Notes under the pieces: model-generated
What the model was told of the DNA's origin: nothing
What the model saw: the letters and a program-made list of their open reading frames with translations, nothing else
Database searches by the model: none
Assembly (NCBI GenBank): GCA_010093705.1
Contig: MU006094.1
Coordinates: 110,020 to 174,019, forward strand
Source of the DNA: Patellaria atrata CBS 101060
Lineage: Eukaryota
Reading direction: 5' to 3'
Length of the DNA: 64,000 bases
Made by a program: the position numbers and the translations under genes
In this document: positions 13,862 to 52,823 of the stretch, piece after piece
How positions within the stretch are numbered: position 1 is the first letter of the stretch
Layout of the letters: each line of letters starts with the position of its first letter

Positions 13862-16800
13862 ATGGCCCCTGGACTGGTCGATCCCGCAGTCTCCTCGGAG
13901 ACTCAACAATCATTAAGCTCCCTTACCGAAAGTTATGATGATACTATCCGCTTCTACCTTAATGGAACCAAAGTTACTTTGGATGACGCGGACCCTGAAG
14001 TGACTTTACTGGAGTATCTTCGTGGCATTGGTTTGACTGGAACTAAGTTGGGTTGTGCAGAGGGTGGCTGCGGAGCATGCACAGTTGTAAGTGTTAGCCC
14101 CTGCTACAGGCAGCTCCAGGATACTCATACATACAGGTCGTTTCCCAATGGAATCCCACAACAAAGAACGTCTATCATGCTTCAGTAAATGCGTGTCTTG
14201 CACCGTTGATAAGTGTTGATGGCAAGCATGTGATCACAGTTGAGGGAATTGGGAATGTGAATAGACCACATCCTGCTCAAGAGCGAATAGCAAAGGGGAA
14301 TGGTAGTCAATGTGGGTTTTGTACCCCTGGTATAGTAATGGTAAGAGCTATAGCCTTCATTTACCTCGTAGATCAATATCTGACTATGGATTAGAGCTTG
14401 TATGCACTGTTACGAAACAAACCGGATCCATCAGAGCATGATGTTGAGGAAGCCTTCGACGGGAATCTTTGTCGATGTACAGGTTACAGGCCCATTTTGG
14501 ACGCCGCCCAAAGCTTTAGCAAAAACAGAGGATGTGGGAAATCCACAGCTAATGGCGGCAGTGGATGCTGCATGGAGAATGGAAACGGCGGAGGTTGTGG
14601 AAAGAGCCTTGACGGAGACCAACCAATTAAGAGATTTACACCTCCTGGATTCATCGAGTATAAGCCCGACACGGAACTGATTTTCCCACCAACACTTAGA
14701 AAACATGAATTCAAGCCGCTCGCTTTCGGTAACAAGCGAAAGAAGTGGTTTAGACCCGTTACTCTTCAGCAATTGTTAGAAATCAAGAGTGCATATCCGT
14801 CAGCAAAGATCATTGGAGGCAGTACAGAAACTCAAATTGAGGTAAAGTTTAAGAATATGCAATACACTGCCTCAGTGTATGTTGGCGATATTCCGGAGCT
14901 TCGTCAGTTCGAATTCCACGATGATTACCTCGAAATAGGAGGGAATATTGTTCTTACAGACCTCGAGAAGATTTCTGCAGACGCTATCGAGCATTACGGC
15001 GAAATTCGCGGTCAACCCTTCGCCGCTATTCTCAAACAGCTACGGTATTTCGCCGGAAGGCAAATTCGTAATGTTGGAACACCTGCAGGAAATCTTGCAA
15101 CCGCTTCTCCAATCTCTGATCTCAATCCAGTATTTGTTGCTACCAACACCGTTGTGATTTCGAAATCATTGGAAGCGGAGGTAGCTATTCCTCTGTCACA
15201 GTTTTTCCTAGGTTATAGAACCATAGCACTAGAACCAAATGCTATCATCGCAAGCCTAAGAATACCAGTTGCAAAAGAGAAAGGAGAATACTTGCGTGCA
15301 TTCAAACAAGCGAAGAGAAAGGATGACGATATCGCGATCGTCAATGCCGCATTACGAGTATCCTTAGACGACTCGAATACGGTGGAGAGCTCTGATCTGG
15401 TGTACGGTGGTATGGCCCCTATCACAATACCTGCTAAGAAGGCATCCGAATACTTGAAAGGGAAAAATTGGACAGACCCATCGACCCTTGAAGGTGTAAT
15501 GAATGCCCTAGAACAAGACTTTGATCTACGGTTCGGCGTCCCGGGTGGAATGGCAACATACCGCAAATCGCTTGCTCTCGGGTTCTTCTATAAGTTCTAC
15601 CACGAAGTTCTCGCTGACCTTGCCGACAAAGACGTAAAAGCAGACACGCACGCCATTGGTGAAATTGAACGAGAAATATCGTTTGGCAAGAAAGATCACG
15701 ACGCCACTCAAGCGTACGAACAGAAGGTTCTTGGAAAGGAGCGCCCACATGTGGCGGCAATGAAACAGTGTACGGGAGAAGCACAGTATACAGATGATAT
15801 ACCGGTCCAGAAGAACGAACTGTACGGATGTTTGGTCTTGTCGACGAAAGCACATGCGAAGTTATTAAGTGTTGATCCCTCTCCTGCTCTGGATCTCCCT
15901 GGGGTGGTTGCATGGGTTGACCATCACGATCTTCCTAATCCTGAAGCAAACTGGTGGGGTGCGCCTAGCTGTGATGAGGTCTTCTTTGCAGTAGATGAGG
16001 TGTTTACAGCAGGTCAGCCAATTGGCATGATTCTAGCAGTTTCCGCGAAGCATGCGGAAACTGCTTCTAAGGTTGTTAGAGTCGAGTATGAGGAACTCCC
16101 AGCCATTTTCACAATCGAAGAGGCGATTTTGAAAGAGAGTTACTTCGATCATGCACACTACATCAAGAATGGGGATGTTGAAAAGGGTTTCGCTGAATCA
16201 GATCATGTGTTTACTGGTACTGCGAGGATGGGCGGACAAGAACACTTTTACCTCGAAACACAAGCCTGCGTTGTTGTGCCTAAACCCGAAGATGGCGAGA
16301 TTGAGGTCTTCAGTAGTACCCAGAATCCCGCTGAGACGTAAGTAAATATTTCCCTTCTATTCAACTTCCCGCATACTTACAGATCCCACAGTCAAGCATA
16401 CGTTGCTCAAGTAACAGGCGTCCAAGCCAACAAAGTCGTCACCCGCGTCAAACGCCTCGGTGGCGGTTTCGGCGGCAAAGAAACTCGCTCCATCCAACTT
16501 GCCGGCATCTGCGCTACCGCCGCGAAAAAGACATCCCGCCCCGTCCGCTGCATGCTCAACCGCGACGAGGACATCGTTACCTCCGGGCAACGGCACCCCT
16601 TCCTCGCCAGGTGGAAAGTTGGCGTAAACAAAGACGGCAAGCTGCAAGCCCTTGATGCGGACGTCTTCAACAACGGTGGATGGAGCCAGGATCTCAGCGC
16701 CGCGGTTATCGATAGGGGACTGAGCCATATCGATGGTGTGTATAAAATCCCGAATGTACATGTAAGGGGACGAATCGCGAAGACCAACACGGTGAGCAAC

Positions 16801-18078
16801 ACGGCCTTCCGTGGTTTCGGCGGGCCACAGGGGATGTTTATCGCGGAGACGTACATGGAGGAGGTGGCGGACCATCTCGGGATGCCTGTGGAGAAGCTCC
16901 GAGAAATAAACATGTACAAAGATCGCGAAATCACGCACTTCAACCAGGAGCTCAGGGACTGGCACGTACCGCTCATGTACAAGCAAGTGCAAGAAGAGTC
17001 AGACTATCAGAAGCGTAGAGAGGAGATCGAGGAGTTCAACAAAACTCATAAATGGAATAAACGAGGACTTGCGCTGATCCCGACGAAGTTCGGCATCTCC
17101 TTCACCGCTCTCTTCCTCAATCAAGCGGGCGCACTGGTCCACATCTACCACGACGGCTCGGTGCTCGTCGCCCACGGCGGCACGGAAATGGGTCAAGGTC
17201 TGCACACAAAGATGACGATGATCGCCGCCGAAGCACTCGGAGTCCCCCAAGATGACGTCTTCATCTCCGAAACCGCCACCAACACCGTCGCCAACACCTC
17301 TTCCACCGCCGCCTCCGCCTCCTCGGACCTCAACGGCTACGCCATCTGGAACGCCTGCTCCCAGCTCAACGACCGCCTCGCCCCCTACCGCGCCAAACTT
17401 GGCCCCTCAGCCACGATGAAGCAGCTCGCACACGCCGCCTACTTCGACCGCGTCAACCTCTCCGCAAACGGCTTCTACAAGACCCCGGACATCGGCTACA
17501 TCTGGGGCCCGAACACAGGGCAGATGTTCTTCTACTTCACGCAGGGCGTCACGGCCGCCGAGGTCGAGATCGACACGCTGACGGGGGATTGGACGTGTCG
17601 ACGGGCGGACGTCAAGATGGACGTCGGTCGCAGCATCAACCCCGCCATCGACTACGGCCAGATCGAGGGCGCGTTCGTCCAGGGCCAAGGTCTGTTTACC
17701 ACCGAGGAGATGCTGTGGCATCGCGCCTCCGGGGGCATTTTCACGAAGGGCCCCGGCGCGTATAAGATCCCCGGGTTTAGGGATATACCGCAGGAGTTTA
17801 ACGTCTCGCTGCTCAAGGACGTCGAGTGGGAGGATCTGCGCACCATTCAGCGCTCCCGAGGTGTCGGGGAGCCGCCGCTGTTCATGGGCAGCGCGGTTTT
17901 CTTTGCTATTAGGGACGCGTTGAAGGCGGCGAGGAACCAGTGGGGGGAGGAGAGCGTGTTGGCGCTTACGAGCCCCGCCACGGTCGAGAGGATTAGGGTT
18001 AGTTGCTCGGATCCGATTGTGGAGAGGGTGAGGGTTCAGCCCGGGGAGGGCGAGAAGAGCTTTTTTGTGTCGATTTAG
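13862..18078 (+). CDS. hxA: Xanthine dehydrogenase (purine hydroxylase I; 2Fe-2S/FAD/Moco)
   Basis: [40 protein letters not shown] domain, [19 protein letters not shown], catalytic GEPP. Three short introns, the last at 16338-16391. Confidence 0.97.
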
Positions 18079-41087: not shown

Positions 41088-43101
41088 TCAGTGGCCACCC
41101 TTGGCCAATTGGACTAACTTAGGGAAGATCTATCAATGACTATCAGCCCATGTCTTCCAACATCTTATCTGTGGAAGAAGTAGATGAACTTACCGGAGTA
41201 CCAAACCCAGTCACCGGATCCCAGCCCTTCGTAACTGGGAATCCGCTAGTCTCACACCCAGAGCTGTTTCCAGCCAAGATATCCGTGAAGCCCTTATATC
41301 CCTTCGAGTACAACCACGGGTTCAGGAAACCAAGAGGCTTCTTGCCAGACGAGATCAAAGCATCGTTGACGAGAGAGATGACGGCACCTGTAAGCGGGCA
41401 AGAAGCGCTGGTTCCGCTGATGGTACCTTCGGTGCCGTTCCAGACGTAGGCGAAGTATTGGCCTTGCGCCGAGATGTCGGGATAGCCGCGACCGGCTGTA
41501 TTCGTAAAGTTAGAAGTGTAAGATTTGAGAAGTGAAGAGCACATACCTTTGTTATAAAGTCCGTCATGTAGGCCGTTAAGACTCTTGATATACTTCGTAA
41601 CCACCGTCTTCTGATACTTCGGCATGGGGAAGAGGTCGCTGAAGCCGGACCCACTAGCATAGATTTCCCTGATGGTGCCGTCCGGACGGGTCTCCTGAGG
41701 GCGGAAAGCGGCGACCTCGGGTTGAAACTCGTGCGTAGCGCCGATGGAAGTTACATAAGGGCAGCTGGTCGGGAAGCTAGGTAGAAACTTTCTGGTGTTC
41801 TGGCCGTCGTTGGAGACACAGGTGTTGCGGAGGCCTACGCCACGATCACCGCTGGAAAAGAGTAGCGAGACGCCGCGGGCACCTAGTTGAGCGAATTCGT
41901 TGCAGACACGACGAGAGTATGATTCCGGAATAGTTTGTTCTGGTTCGCCATAAGAGGTGGTGATAACTTGAGGTACAACACGCTGAGCGAGAACGTAGTT
42001 GATCCAGTCGAGATAAGGTTCATTTGTGTTTTCTGGAGTGCTCAGATCAGGAATGTAAGGAGGGCTACCACCAGTTGAGTAGGCCCAGATAGGAGTAGGC
42101 CAGCCGACCACTCCTGAAATCGCCTGGACGTCCAAGTTCGCCTCACGAGAGATGCCCTCTGCGGCTTGAGTAGCGTTTAGAGGCCCATCCTGCGACGGCC
42201 CGTTAGCAATGTCAATTTGTCTGAAACTATACGCCGCCGGTACAGCTGCAGGTTTGTACTTTTTCAGGAACTTGGCTGTATCTGGGCGGATGGGAATTTC
42301 ACCAAGGTAGTTGGTGAATCCTATCTTATTAATGCCGGGAACCTTAGGTATGTAACCTTTGAATTGGTACAGCTGCGCGAAGCATTCAGGTGTGACGGAA
42401 CTAATGTTGCAGACCCGTCGGATAGCTTCATCATTGGGTGGGGAGTAGCTGGGAGAAATCCAAGGCTTTGACTGCGAATCAAGGTATGTAGCTTCTTCCG
42501 GGTGGGCCCTAAAGAAAGAGGTCGTTGGTTGAATCGTGTCCACATGCTCATGTAGATGTACTGGTAGCGACCACTTTGGCGCACGAATGAGCTCGGTGCC
42601 ATCGTCATGCTGGTATACATGGTATTCCGTGTCTAGGAGAGCTTCGATTTTCTCTACTGGAAGAATGGCCATAATCCAATCTTTGGAGGAGCTATGACCA
42701 ATATGTTCGATACCATTGCTTGACAGCCATTCCTCGACTGAGCTAAGAGCATCGTCTGCAGGCTTAACAAGTTCACTCACTTCCTCGGGGCTTAGATGTT
42801 GACCATAGCGAGCATGTTCGGGATCAGAAACTATTCATTGTATTAGAGCAAGGCCAGATCACGTTCAGAATGCCCGCGCCATACCTTCATACAAGTGACG
42901 TTCCAGTTCCTCGAATTGGCCTTGTTTCAGACCAATCTTCAGATGAACAATATGGTCGCGCGGTGCGCGATCCCGCTTCGTCCAGCCTGAGGGAAGGAAT
43001 TCTTCCTTGAGGGCATACGGAGTCCGCGCTTGAATCGGACCGGCAACTACAACAGTGGCAGCAATTGCTGCTAACGACAACAAGGTGGTGAAGCTTCGCA
43101 T
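41088..43101 (-). CDS. Secreted S53 sedolisin / tripeptidyl-peptidase I
   Basis: Signal peptide MRSFTTLLSLAAIAATVVVA, pro-domain (VSDPEHARYGQHLS), catalytic EANLD, SSGD, GTSAS, and Ca-binding WDPVTGFGTP. Confidence 0.95.
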
Positions 43102-44322: not shown

Positions 44323-46189
44323 TTATGCACGACACTTCGAAAGCTGTGCAGCTAATAGAGCACACTTTTCTGCCTGGACCTTTCTCTCATGGTCCGTCTC
44401 CTTTGTTTTGACCGTAAGGCACGCTTCGACAACGAAGGCATATATTTCTCCACATCTTGACACAAGTTGTGGGCATATCTCTTTGATGATCGTGTTAAGA
44501 ATCCATTCGGGCGGTGCCCTCTCTATCGGACGCCCATCCGCAATCTTCTCCAGCATAACAGGTAGCGACCTCCACATACCGATCTCCAAGAGTGTAAGTC
44601 CTAATGAGTAGATGTCGTACGCTTGGAGATATCGTCGATCGGGATTCCGACGCTTGTCTGGATGATGATAAAAGTCTAGTTGGTCACCTCGACCAGCCCT
44701 CTGAACTCGCGCCGCAGGAGCAGTACTATCGATATCGTAGAGACGGTCGGATCTCGAAAGACCCCATTCTGCAATGAAGGGAGATTCCCAGTCAACGTCA
44801 CCCCTATCTATCGGGTAATCATCCTTTGGGAAGAATATAATGGCCTTCGGACGTATATTCTTATGTACCCAACCAGCAGCATGCAAAAGCAGTACGCTGT
44901 TCAGAATCTTCTTGGCCAATTCAAATCTCCACCCTAGCGGTCGAGTAGTCCCTGAATTCAGTATCGTCGCAAGATTGACTGGTCGACGCTCTTTGAGGTC
45001 CTCATCATCGTTATCTCTTATATCTTGAATGCCAAGATGGCCAGGTAACTCGTATACGAATCCGATTTTACCCGTTTCAGGTTCATCAAACATTCCATAA
45101 CATTTCAAAGTTCGTAGTCGATTGCTTGCTCTTTCATCAGTGAGGAGTTTTCCGAATTTCAATATATCGTCGTAAATCTCTTCATCCATATGCCCATTCT
45201 CGTCATGATATGACTTGTATTCTATTAATACAAGTTCCTCGGACCATTTGCCATGATTACTTGTAGACCATAAGGCGAGCACTGGTAAAGTCTTAGAACG
45301 CAATAGGTGATAATCGTCGGCACATAGAGCAAGCAGCTTGCGTCTCTGAATTCCATCCATGTGGCCTGCCGAATGAACGGCCAGTCCTTTCAAAGGAGCT
45401 AGATCTGCAAGTATTTCATAGAGATCAGAAGATTCAGGATTGCTTTCGCTAGACATCTGGGTAGCCAAAGTTTTAGTCATTATAAGGCCTGCAGGGCTGA
45501 CATGAGACCATAGATAATCAACGAGGAAGTTCATTCTCAATGTTTCGTAAGCTCCATCTGGACAAAGCACGCTGAGCGTATGGTTATGCTTAGAGATTTC
45601 CTTTGTTAGCTCAATAACCTTGTTACCGTCTCTCAAAGACCATTTGCATCTCCGTAAGATCGAAAATCTTTGCCGCAAGGTTGCGGATTTGTCTTGTAGT
45701 GCTGCGACTTGATCCTTGAAAGACGATGAAGGGGATAGAAGGTTCCGTGAAGTCCTCCCCTGGCGGACTCTTGTCAAATGTTGTTGTAATAGCTGAGATG
45801 GCAATACTCACCAACTGTATCCCCTGATCGGGTTTCAATTCGATGCCATAATCATAGTGAAGTTTCTCATGATTGGAAAGAAGATCAGCAATAGCACACA
45901 GTGCACCTTCAATTCCATCTATCTTATATCTGTTGTGGAGAAGATATTCTCCAATCTTCTTATTTTGAGCGTCTAATTGCAACCGTCCGGACTCAGTGAA
46001 CGAGGTCTTATGTCTATGGATGCCCCAATATGCACCCCATGATTTCAGAATAGACTCTTGAATTCCTAAAGCTCGGATCGCTCTAAATGCATTCGTCTCA
46101 GCCGATCGGACGTCAGAGAAAAAGATAAAGCAATCCCGACAAGCCGAATACAGGCCGACGATACCGACAGCTAAACTGACAGGATCCAT
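44323..46189 (-). CDS. HeLo (prion-inhibition)-domain protein fused to a kinase-like (probable pseudokinase) domain
   Basis: N-terminus MDPVSLAVGIVGLYSAC...QESILKSWGAYWGI; KWSLRD at the end of the HeLo region; intron 45811-45760. Kinase-like motifs VLIEYK, HKNIRPKAIIFF, YHHPD, YDIYSLGLTLLEIGMW. Confidence 0.82.
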
Positions 46190-46506
46190 TGTATAAAGTT
46201 GCACAAGCAATAGAACTTTAGCAATAGTGATGCTTCATCTTGCAAATGTGCAGTTGAGAAGTGGGGAGGTTTCTGTTTTTCAGCTCATGCAAGCCAAGAT
46301 TTTAGACGCAGGCCCTATCTCACAACTGATACACAAATTTGTGGTTCAAATATGATTGAAAACGATGCTTGAGATTAAATCAAATACTTCTGTACTATAC
46401 CGTGCAATATATCACAGCTCTGTAACAGTGGCTTAGTTCTAGTGTGATCCGATTGCTGGCAGTTCGGATAGAACTAGTTTTATGTCAGTTTTCGCAGTCC
46501 TCGTCG

Positions 46507-50261: not shown

Positions 50262-51431
50262 TCATAATTCATCATGCCCCATACTGTCAGATCCGGGACT
50301 CTCTTTTTCAATGGGCTTCACCTTTCCCTGAAAGATGTCAAGCATGAATATTTCCACTAATATAGTTGTAATATCCTGAATCTCTGGATACGGGAAGACT
50401 TGATCTTTCCATGCGCTGTAAAATGTCAACGCGGGAAAGGTCCCCGACCGAAGTCCTAAGCTACCAGCCATATGTCCGTATTCATCAGCGTCTATTGTTA
50501 CAAAATTGATGTAGTCAGAATACTTCCTAGCTAGTAGTTGGAGCTCTCGGCTCAAAGTTGTACGATCGGAGTCATTGTCGTAGAATATGTACGCGAGCAG
50601 CTTTTGAGACTGGGGTATGTTAGTCACTCAGAGACACAAGTACTGAATTGAACAGAAATAACTCTTACGGTCATATATCCCATCTCCGTTCTTCTGGTTA
50701 ATTCACCAATCAGAGGTCTACTGGCTTGCAATATAAACTTCCTGATAGAAGCTTTATCGAAAGGACCTCTAAAAAACTCGGTTTCAGCGCCGTCTGCCTT
50801 GAAGATTACGATTCCCGGCGCAGATAGCCCATTCCCCACAAAATATTGGCTCCCGATGACTCCAAATATGAATTCATCGTGGTACTCTTTCGCAACCTGT
50901 TCAAAGGTTCTCCTGGATGCCTTGTCTTCTTCTTCCAACGAGGCAACTAACAAGTTTATTCCCAGGTTACGATATCCTTCTATGTTTCCAGAATCCAACT
51001 CTGCAACAATGGGCAACTTAGCAAGTCTGACGAATGATGATATATCGGAAGCTTTTGGTGGTCCTCTATATCGAACAAACTCTTCTGCTCCTTTGTGTAG
51101 TCGAATTGCAGGGTAAGAATGGACACTTCTATCACTACAATATTTTTTTTCGATAGAGCAATCCACCGTAATTAGAGGAACATTTAAACTCCAAGACAAA
51201 TCTGCCCAATGTGGAAGAAGAGATGCACTTGGTCCTGTCCATGGCTGAAAGAAAGTCAGAATTTATAGAGACCAATTAGCTAGGATGACATACAATTATA
51301 TAGGCGACCAAAGCGAGCGTGTTGGATGACAATACAGAGTCAGCATGTGAGCTAGAAGTAGTGTTCCACCGCAATTCGCTTCCTTGTACAACTGCTACAA
51401 ATAGGAAAATCGTACAAAATAGAGAGCGCAT
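50262..51431 (-). CDS. ER-resident PDI-like thioredoxin-fold protein lacking the CxxC active site (a-b-b'-like, HDEL)
   Basis: Signal peptide MRSLFCTIFLFVAVVQG; introns 51293-51245 and 50668-50610. a-like domain LVAYIIPWTGPSASLLPHW...TVDC...YC...SYPAIRL; b'-like PLIGELT, INFVTIDADEYG, FPAL. C-terminus GHDEL. Confidence 0.85.
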
Positions 51432-51946
51432 ATTGTTCTATCTTTTAGGATTATTTTCATGAAGAAGTTGGGAGAGATGTTGTATTAGAGATAACAGAAC
51501 GAATATCTTCCTGAAACTCGGTATCGTAATTAGTCCATAAATGATGTCGAGACCAGGAGGTTCCTACCAGCTGCCAAATTATACTTAGTGACTGTATGTA
51601 AAAAGGAGGTAAGAAATAAAACGGGTCAACAATGAAATTTACAGAGAGACATAAAATTTCCCATTCATGTCCTTCCTCTGTTGTTTGTGCCCGGAATAAA
51701 ACAAGATATAGCAAGATTCATAACAACGAAATTGAACAGAATGGGGTACGCCTGAAACACTGAACGATCCAAAAAAAGCTTCACAATATGCAGGTTGTTT
51801 CCGACCGGCTACTTTTCTATGGGATATTTCCTTGTTGCTAACTAATCAATGCGGTCTGATAGACAGAGTATACTTCGAATATTCAAAAGCGCATTGATCA
51901 AATTTTGCACGTCCAAAATCCAAACAAGTGACGCAGAGAAGGAGAG

Positions 51947-52823
51947 ATGAAGATATTCGGAGGTGCCGGCTGTGCCGCTGTCTTCGGCATCGCACTGACC
52001 ATCAGCCGAGTCGCTTCGGCATCCCAAGCCCCTGAAAACCCACTCAACGACATCACCGAAACCTGCACCCATCCACCATACAAGATCCACATTTTCTCTC
52101 TTAGTCCGCTAGTAATATACATCGTAAACTTCCTCACACCAGAAGAACGACAGCACCTCCTCTCAATCACGTAAGTACTTCCATCATTTCCTCTCAACCC
52201 GTCAGCCCAAACTGACCCTTGAAAGCTCCAACGCCTTCACCACCTCCCAAACCGCAGACGAACATGGCACCTCCGCCCTCCGTAGCACAAGGAAGTCCCG
52301 CTCCGCAACTCCACCGCGGGATACCATAGTCCGATGTATCGAGTCCCGAGCCCTTCTTTTCCAAGGCCTTTCGACACCCCTCTCACATCTCGAACCCCTC
52401 CAACTCGTCCAATACACCCAAAACGAAACCTACGACTTCCACACCGACTGGTTCACCTCTCCCTCTCTCGCCTCCCCTTCCCACGGTGGCAATCGTCTGT
52501 CCTCATTCTTCGCATACGTTCTCGCGACCGATGATATCACGGGGGGCGGGACGACGTTCCCGTTGCTAGATGCGCCGCGGGATGAAAAGTGGTGCGGGTA
52601 TGTGGATTGTGATAGACCGTGGGACGAGGGCGTGACGTTCCTACCGGTCGAGGGGAATGCGGTGTTTTGGGTGAATATGGTGGGAGGCCAGGGGGATCAG
52701 AGGACGCTACATAGAGGGGATGTTGTAACGAGTGGGCGGAAGATGGGGATGAATATTTGGACCAGGGAGGGGGAATTGGATCCGGAGCTTAGGGGTGAAG
52801 GGTGGGAGGAAGATGAACTGTGA
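51947..52823 (+). CDS. Prolyl 4-hydroxylase alpha-like Fe(II)/2-oxoglutarate dioxygenase with signal peptide
   Basis: Intron 52171-52225. SPLVIYIVNFLTPEE, EPLQLVQY, Fe ligands HTD and LH(RG), GGGTTFP, 2OG-binding K in GRKMGMNIW. Ends EEDEL. Confidence 0.9.

Follow-up and report, generated by a model that had tools for sequence, protein, structure and literature searches.

We examined a divergent gene pair in the fungus Patellaria atrata CBS 101060 (a Dothideomycete by taxonomy look-up), lying within a 64-kb stretch of contig MU006094.1; this stretch of 64,000 nucleotides is called the window here, and all genes and features are given in its coordinates. The focal region, 50262-52823, holds gene A on the minus strand (50262..51431), which encodes a 353-residue protein derived from protein disulfide isomerase (PDI) with an a-b-b' domain order and no CxxC motif, and gene B on the plus strand (51947..52823), which encodes a 273-residue 2-oxoglutarate (2OG)/Fe(II) oxygenase of the prolyl 4-hydroxylase (P4H) type. 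An earlier reading of this DNA (the original prediction) had suggested that the two genes form a fungal counterpart of the alpha/beta module of animal collagen P4H (C-P4H), placing their start codons at 51431 (minus) and 51947 (plus), divergent across a spacer of 515 bp. The coordinates bear out this arrangement, and here we weigh what the pair may do together.

Gene A comprises three exons (51431-51294, 51244-50669 and 50609-50262, with the stop codon at 50262-50264) separated by GT..AG introns of 49 nt (51293-51245) and 59 nt (50668-50610), and its spliced product (P0121) is letter-for-letter the deposited protein M501DRAFT_1056886. Gene B comprises two exons (51947-52170 and 52226-52823, stop codon at 52821-52823) around a 55-nt intron (52171-52225), and its spliced product (P0001) is likewise identical to the deposited M501DRAFT_1056887. 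Between the two start codons lies the intergenic spacer (51432..51946), presumed to serve as a bidirectional promoter common to both genes. Each protein begins with a hydrophobic N-terminus that we read as a signal peptide, in keeping with the prediction that both carry one.

Judged by its sequence, B is a genuine catalytic domain of the P4H family with putative peptidyl-proline 4-hydroxylase activity. Exon 2 alone matched the Pfam family PF13640 (2OG-FeII_Oxy_3) at 29 bits against a cut-off of 27, and of 463 candidates from the family search, 333 proteins reached E <= 0.001; the 120 homologues listed share 55-71% identity with B across exon 2, the window's own protein (100%) excepted. The predicted intact HxD...H...K signature was confirmed, with the Fe(II) ligands H147-T-D149 (52440..52448, plus strand), the second Fe ligand H237 and the 2OG-binding K247 (52710..52742 for the latter two, plus strand) invariant in 23/23 homologues. 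Equally invariant in these 23 proteins are Y138, Y144 and T184, which a profile alignment places opposite 2OG-binding and catalytic-loop residues of the Chlamydomonas enzyme Cr-P4H; the roles of such residues in 2OG binding, substrate binding and the catalytic loop are described for Cr-P4H and human C-P4H-II in excerpts of PMC9676403.

A PDB profile search built from the 23 homologues matched Cr-P4H-1 at 6.5e-25 and the Bacillus anthracis P4H at ~1e-21, along with the catalytic (CAT) domain of human P4HA2 (7zsc_A, 2.1e-21), P4H-TM and the enzyme of the virus PBCV-1. The AlphaFold2 (AF2) model of B had a mean predicted local distance difference test score (pLDDT) of 81.3, and Foldseek aligned it with Cr-P4H (3gze_A) at TMt 0.85 and with human 7zsc_A at 0.66. 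By both model and fold match, B consists beyond its signal peptide of one double-stranded beta-helix (DSBH) domain only, and because this core is its only domain, the dimerisation and peptide-substrate-binding domains found in animal alpha subunits are absent from it. Four cysteines (C40, C112, C198 and C203) are invariant across the 23 homologues, which fits an oxidising, lumenal location for the protein. The model also contains a low-confidence stretch at residues 85-96, the place that, according to excerpts of PMC9676403, is occupied in Cr-P4H by the hairpin loop that contacts substrate.

Gene A is, on the sequence evidence, a PDI derivative: a paralogue of fungal PDI minus the a' domain and the redox site. 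Pfam recognised Thioredoxin and Thioredoxin_6 domains, and the AF2 model (pLDDT 92.6) consists of three thioredoxin-like domains in the order a-b-b' and a disordered tail with HDEL at its end. Its nearest relative in both structure and sequence is canonical fungal PDI; the best fold match was the Chaetomium thermophilum PDI of the EDEM:PDI complex (8pko_B, E 1.4e-31, 32% identity, TMq 0.72), and the best sequence matches among solved proteins were filamentous-fungus PDIs (9tpa_B/29te_B, 4e-54). Unlike canonical PDI, A has no CxxC, belongs to a clade of its own and is encoded beside the gene of its presumed partner, and the absence of the a' domain makes it ~150 residues shorter.

Where PDI carries WCGHC, A carries the degenerate site W48-T-G-P-S52 (51227..51241, minus strand), so that A is a PDI-fold protein rather than an isomerase. 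This loss extends to its relatives. An HMMER search with A, on which our view of the family's range rests (a word-indexed protein search gave 2 relatives with an exon query and 11 with an alignment query), returned 1751 relatives at E <= 0.001, and among the best 150 of these we found 55 proteins of 300-420 residues without CxxC, referred to below as A-type. The predicted absence of CxxC from the PDI-fold partner was borne out in every one of the 42 A-type proteins aligned over the active site (columns for residues 47-53; CxxC in 0/42), where the usual remnant is x-x-x-S-K and 7/42 retain a single cysteine, mostly at the distal position. C75 and C82 are invariant in the A family and presumably mark the structural a-domain disulfide of fungal PDIs. 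The family otherwise evolves fast, with a mean column identity of 27% versus 57% for the B family.

In a quick maximum-likelihood tree built from 60 CxxC-less proteins together with 12 canonical PDIs, all members known to be linked to B fell in one group of 48, and the branch parting the 12 canonical PDIs from that group had a value of 96 in the SH-like approximate likelihood ratio test (SH-aLRT). We rejected a single family for all CxxC-less a-b-b' proteins, as the same tree resolved a separate clade of nine outside the group of 48 (SH-aLRT 100). This second clade (P0130, P0178, P0181, P0183, P0191, P0227, P0234, P0256 and P0265) comprises proteins of ~310-410 residues, 6/9 of which end in RDEL. 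None of its members was the best match at any P4H-linked locus, and in the species of P0227 the gene for this protein and the B gene are on separate contigs. ERp44 resembles A in its a-b-b' architecture, its C-terminal retrieval signal (RDEL) and its non-CxxC a domain (CRFS), with an Atlas feature score of 0.94. We nevertheless rejected A as an ERp44 orthologue: ERp44 matched it at only E ~1e-6 versus 4e-54 for fungal PDI, and ERp44 acts via a single active-site cysteine, whereas A has a threonine at that site, which is variable across the A family.

The two proteins of the window both end in a retrieval signal for the endoplasmic reticulum (ER), HDEL in A (50265..50276, minus strand) and EDEL in B (52809..52820, plus strand). 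The prediction of xDEL on both proteins is therefore correct for the window but does not extend to the families. Among the 86 of the 120 listed B homologues that appear full-length (M start, at least 240 residues), a [DE]EL ending occurs in 1/86, the window's own protein, with two others ending in SEL or NEL. Among the 55 A-type proteins, 52 end in xxEL (32 HDEL, 8 RDEL, 6 HEEL, 1 KDEL and 5 others). The B of this window may have gained its own signal secondarily in this lineage. In animal C-P4H the alpha subunit likewise lacks a retrieval signal and is held in the ER via the KDEL of PDI, whose redox activity is dispensable for assembly of the enzyme. Since the B family mostly lacks a retrieval signal and the presumed partner supplies it, the analogy with the alpha/beta enzyme is strengthened at the family level, with a signal on the PDI-type partner and generally none on the catalytic protein, though the B of the window itself departs from this pattern.

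The original prediction had asked whether the pair stays adjacent and divergent in other fungi. We searched JGI/ENA metagenome contigs with two conserved B motifs, which matched 198 stretches, 156 of them encoding a B relative; the best 80 of these 156, with flanks of up to 10 kb, were taken as linkage loci, and A homologues were sought in them by tblastn with the 55 A-type proteins. An A-type gene was present at 60/80 loci, and in 60/60 it lay upstream of B on the opposite strand, as in the window. The remaining 20 loci have 0-747 bp of DNA upstream of B, and because A normally starts 280-900 bp away, they cannot show it. When loci were grouped by the length of available upstream DNA, the pair was found in 55/55 with at least 1000 bp, 57/57 with at least 800 bp, 60/61 with at least 600 bp and 60/63 with at least 400 bp. 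Many loci represent one organism resampled, and we clustered them by nucleotide identity of the B region; at 90% identity (56 clusters in all) the pair occurred in 37/37 informative clusters, and at 85% identity in 35/35. Adjacency and divergence of A and B across fungi were thus confirmed in 55/55 loci and 37/37 lineage clusters.

This conservation does not extend to the neighbouring genes. As a synteny control, we clustered all open reading frames (ORFs) of at least 70 residues from 33 lineage representatives and the window, finding the A family in 34/34 and the B family in 34/34, with every family outside the pair in at most 5/34. No third conserved gene, such as one for a substrate or helper, was common to more than 5/34 lineages in the 10-kb flanks. 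The next-largest ORF clusters (33, 14, 8, 6 and 6 loci) lay on the opposite strand within the coordinates of A or B. We rejected these long antisense ORFs, which cover B in 33/34 loci and A in up to 14/34, as genes and regard them as by-products of the conserved sense frames. With A and B kept together in 34/34 and their neighbours in no more than 5/34, the pair has stayed together amid reshuffled surroundings.

Named relatives extend the pattern beyond the metagenome contigs. In Exophiala spinifera the A-type gene PV08_03088 adjoins the B gene PV08_03087, and A-type and B genes lie on contigs of identical size in Knufia peltigerae (71,278 bp), Mollisia scopiformis (1,375,738 bp) and one ENA assembly (29,836 bp). 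By B identity, paired loci were close to Cadophora sp. (97%), Xylariaceae sp. (90%), Hyaloscypha variabilis (86-89%), Melanomma pulvis-pyrius (85%) and Lasiosphaeria hispida (78-81%). The classes covered are Dothideomycetes, Eurotiomycetes and Leotiomycetes, with Sordariomycetes by similarity only, and the Atlas clusters of both proteins are mostly Ascomycota. It could be argued that such linkage carries no functional meaning and that A and B are unrelated ER genes tied by a compact bidirectional promoter that cannot easily be divided, given that divergent pairs can persist for regulatory reasons alone. We find this very improbable in light of the 37/37 lineage clusters, the named relatives in four classes and the flanking genes retained in at most 5/34 lineages. 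The same two protein families, moreover, form a known animal enzyme, and the complex model described below passed its controls. A functional coupling of A and B is, in our view, very likely.

The spacer offers some indication of how the two genes might be regulated together. At related loci whose A match extends to the N-terminus, 282-768 bp usually separate the A match from the B match (range 282-1635). The upper end of this range belongs to one lineage (L028, L029 and L031-L033), with a gap of 1635 bp. The hexamer TGAAAC, a candidate shared cis-element, occurs in the window at 51753..51758 (plus strand, 194 bp upstream of the B start codon), with a second copy at 51512-51517. It is found in 31/40 lineage spacers, usually 120-290 bp upstream of B, where flanking segments predict 7.2 and dinucleotide shuffles 14.0 +/- 2.9 (0/300 shuffles reached 31). 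The heptamer ACCCCTG occurs in 18/40 lineage spacers, with 1.8 expected from flanks and 3.0 from shuffles (0/300 reached 18). Because the lineages are related, these counts overstate independence and serve as leads only; within that limit, both motifs may be shared cis-elements of a bidirectional promoter. We take TGAAACA to resemble the Ste12 pheromone-response element and AGGGG to resemble a stress element, again as leads only.

Co-regulation of this kind would also be expected if A and B never bound one another but served the same clients in the ER, with B hydroxylating them and A holding their Pro-rich or unfolded segments via its b' pocket. The conserved divergent linkage, the short common spacer and the enriched spacer motifs all argue for co-regulation, and A keeps the b-b' unit, which excerpts of PMC9676403 describe as carrying the main peptide-binding pocket in PDI. 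Two non-binding factors would, however, leave the complementary retrieval signals of the families unexplained, and they sit poorly with a complex model that scored well above its controls. We consider this arrangement distinctly improbable.

Modelling of the pair as a complex, another check suggested by the original prediction, used mature A (residues 18-353) and mature B (residues 26-273) in three runs from single sequences without alignments. The interface score ipSAE was 0.69 (0.69, 0.70 and 0.68 in the separate runs) versus 0.01 for the best of 3 controls, a pass that may reflect the likeness of the pair to the solved human complex 7ZSC. In calibration, the mark applied was reached by 51/78 solved complexes and 2/108 mismatched pairs (39/65 and 2/126, respectively, for eukaryotes). 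At least 69% of contacts were common between runs, with a partner pLDDT of at least 80. On the A side, the predicted interface comprises the dead active-site loop (residues 44, 46 and 49), the structural-disulfide region (75-79), the cis-Pro loop (86-94), a conserved R-Y-R-G-P motif (104-109) and the b-b' junction (227-234). The B side contributes the conserved GGG strand (residues 180-183), the extended C198...C203-D loop (residues 198-208) and positions near the second His (233-244). Conservation was higher at the interface positions of A than elsewhere in that protein (0.58 vs 0.42, one-sided Mann-Whitney p = 0.0016).

These contacts recall those of the animal enzyme in part. The active-site and cis-Pro loops of A, as modelled, touch B near the loop before the second His. 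In human CAT-PDI, excerpts of PMC9676403 describe the a domain touching CAT via its CGHC and cis-Pro loops, and we liken the human a-domain contact near Ser492 to the modelled A-B contact, a mapping inferred from that partial account. The same excerpts give greatest importance to contacts of a', b' and the N-terminal extension of CAT. With no a' domain in A and no such extension in B, any real fungal complex would be a reduced version of the human one or a different arrangement.

Weighing linkage, retrieval signals and complex model together, we assign a probability of roughly 0.6 to the reading that A and B form a stable heteromer, an ER prolyl 4-hydroxylase in which a dedicated, PDI-derived subunit without catalytic function provides retention and solubility. 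B would be the catalytic subunit, consisting of a signal peptide and a P4H DSBH domain only, and it would use Fe(II), 2OG and O2 to hydroxylate proline residues of proteins transiting the ER; candidate substrates are Pro-rich or collagen-like secreted proteins. A, a paralogue of fungal PDI, keeps the a-b-b' scaffold and HDEL tail, having lost a' and CxxC, and would bind B non-covalently via the beginning of b' and the a-domain face that once bound substrate, this face being predicted to comprise the dead active-site loop, the cis-Pro loop and the conserved RYRGP motif. In this capacity A would keep B soluble and bring it back from the Golgi via the HDEL receptor, a role that would parallel that of PDI for the alpha subunit of animal collagen P4H, and the short divergent promoter would keep the two co-expressed. 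An alpha-beta dimer is our guess at the simplest stoichiometry.

Conserved linkage and the complex model would fit equally well if A served B alone and only transiently, as a folding or escort factor, much as Windbeutel serves Pipe. A would then aid the folding of B or the formation of its two predicted disulfides, after which B would be released to work alone in the ER, in the Golgi or as a secreted protein. The absence of a retrieval signal from 85/86 B homologues is what would be seen for a protein that leaves the ER, B has four invariant cysteines, and its nearest solved relatives are monomeric enzymes (excerpts of PMC9676403). Against such a role, A has no redox site and cannot itself form the disulfides of B, and the high, reproducible interface score and the conserved patch on the a domain suggest, without proving, a defined and lasting interface. 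We regard transient escort as unlikely, though less so than the alternatives considered above, and the stable heteromer remains our preferred reading.

Several observations weigh against a stable heteromer. All loci were found via B, and the presence of a B beside each A orthologue was checked in only four named or ENA cases. The two sequencing runs that cover the locus (one sample, one study) are both unspliced genomic DNA, possibly the source of the assembly itself, and no run recorded as RNA was found. The B of the window carries its own EDEL and so has no need of a partner for retention. The algal Cr-P4H structures, nearest to B among solved proteins, are monomeric according to excerpts of PMC9676403, and since A has no a' domain and B no CAT extension, the fungal interface, if real, must differ from the human one as those excerpts describe it. 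The success of the complex model may stem from likeness to human CAT-PDI (7ZSC), and the model is blind to which family member is used; the real partner, or a further one, could be a canonical PDI or the second CxxC-less paralogue. Finally, conservation at the interface residues of B was not significantly higher than in the remainder of that protein (0.75 vs 0.67, p = 0.10).

Comparison with animal C-P4H (P4HA alpha2/PDI beta2; 7ZSC) clarifies which part of the original alpha/beta hypothesis can be kept. As in the animal enzyme, a P4H catalytic domain is accompanied in the ER by a PDI-family protein, and the proteins themselves are recognisably related to its subunits, B matching 7zsc_A and A matching the PDI chains of 7zsc. 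B differs from the animal alpha subunit in having no N-terminal dimerisation domain, peptide-substrate-binding domain or CAT N-terminal extension. A differs from the beta subunit in being a dedicated paralogue rather than a housekeeping PDI; animal beta is a full a-b-b'-a' PDI with two CGHC sites, whereas A has three domains and no CxxC. Without the a' domain and both CGHC sites, human-type intersubunit disulfides and an a' interface are impossible, and a B consisting of the catalytic domain only, paired with an A that lacks a', does not amount to the animal alpha2beta2 architecture. The linkage and complex-model tests thus favour an alpha/beta P4H module, but not one built on the animal alpha2beta2 plan.

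Taken alone, B more closely resembles the monomeric P4Hs (Cr-P4H-1, 2JIG/3GZE; the Arabidopsis P4Hs; PBCV-1 vCPH), with which it shares its size and its restriction to the catalytic domain. Cr-P4H is its nearest solved relative by sequence (6.5e-25) and by fold (TMt 0.85), and the residues for Fe and 2OG and the catalytic-loop Tyr are kept. B departs from these enzymes in its cysteine pattern (C40, C112, C198 and C203, with no Cys after the second His) and in an extended conserved loop (198-208) that lies at the centre of the predicted A interface. Algal, plant and viral P4Hs act as monomers without PDI, according to excerpts of PMC9676403. Precedents for PDI as a lasting partner do exist: human C-P4H, MTP and EDEM/Htm1 each contain PDI as a stable subunit (PDB titles; excerpts of PMC9676403), and in the complexes EDEM:PDI (8PKO, C. 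thermophilum) and Htm1/Mnl1-Pdi1 (8ZPW, yeast) a fungal PDI is the permanent partner of an ER enzyme.

A collagen-type P4H with a non-catalytic PDI subunit is textbook animal biochemistry, and solved algal, plant, viral and bacterial P4Hs are described as PDI-independent. In agreement with the original prediction, which knew of no such fungal system, we found no fungal P4H with a PDI-like partner in the open literature, subscription journals lying outside the scope of the search. De Bruin et al. reportedly observed endogenous P4H activity in Hansenula in 2002. Excerpts of a preprint cite such activity in Hansenula polymorpha without giving the gene or its subunit composition, report putative P4H domains and collagen-domain proteins as widespread in fungi and place collagen-domain proteins in ascomycetes (bioRxiv 10.1101/2021.10.08.463732). 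If our preferred reading is true, the Pezizomycotina pair, spread over four classes, represents a second version of the P4H-PDI architecture, independent or ancestral, in which the logic of retention is written in the sequences themselves, with the signal on the partner rather than on the enzyme. Only tentatively would we go further and propose that the P4H-PDI partnership is no animal invention, being either ancestral to opisthokonts or evolved twice, and that this two-gene module with a pseudo-PDI beta subunit is the source of peptidyl hydroxyproline in fungal secretory proteins, such as those with collagen domains.

The pair provides two defined knock-out targets for establishing whether filamentous fungi make hydroxyproline and which of their proteins carry it, and it may be a natural example of a PDI paralogue turned into a pure scaffold. 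There is also practical interest in the production of hydroxylated collagen or gelatin in fungal hosts, which now relies on heterologous P4Hs; in Aspergillus niger, for example, hydroxylated collagen has been made with human, plant or viral P4Hs, according to excerpts of PMC12333218.

The 64-kb surroundings of the pair encode a xanthine dehydrogenase, a mitochondrial Phe-tRNA synthetase, a GH32 protein, a sedolisin, a HeLo-domain protein, an SDR, an ankyrin-repeat protein and transporters. We rejected a biosynthetic cluster around A and B, as the genes of the window form an unrelated mix. A few kilobases upstream of the pair, on the minus strand, lie the genes for the sedolisin (41143-42834), with a pro-kumamolisin activation domain and an S8/S53 peptidase domain, and for the HeLo-domain protein (45623-46234), a member of the prion-inhibition/propagation family; neither is kept beside the A-B pair in other lineages. 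The xanthine dehydrogenase/aldehyde oxidase-type gene (14395-18078, plus strand) appears as two abutting ORFs, 14395-16341 and 16342-18078, whose junction splits its MoCoBD_1 domain at a single in-frame stop that could be intronic.

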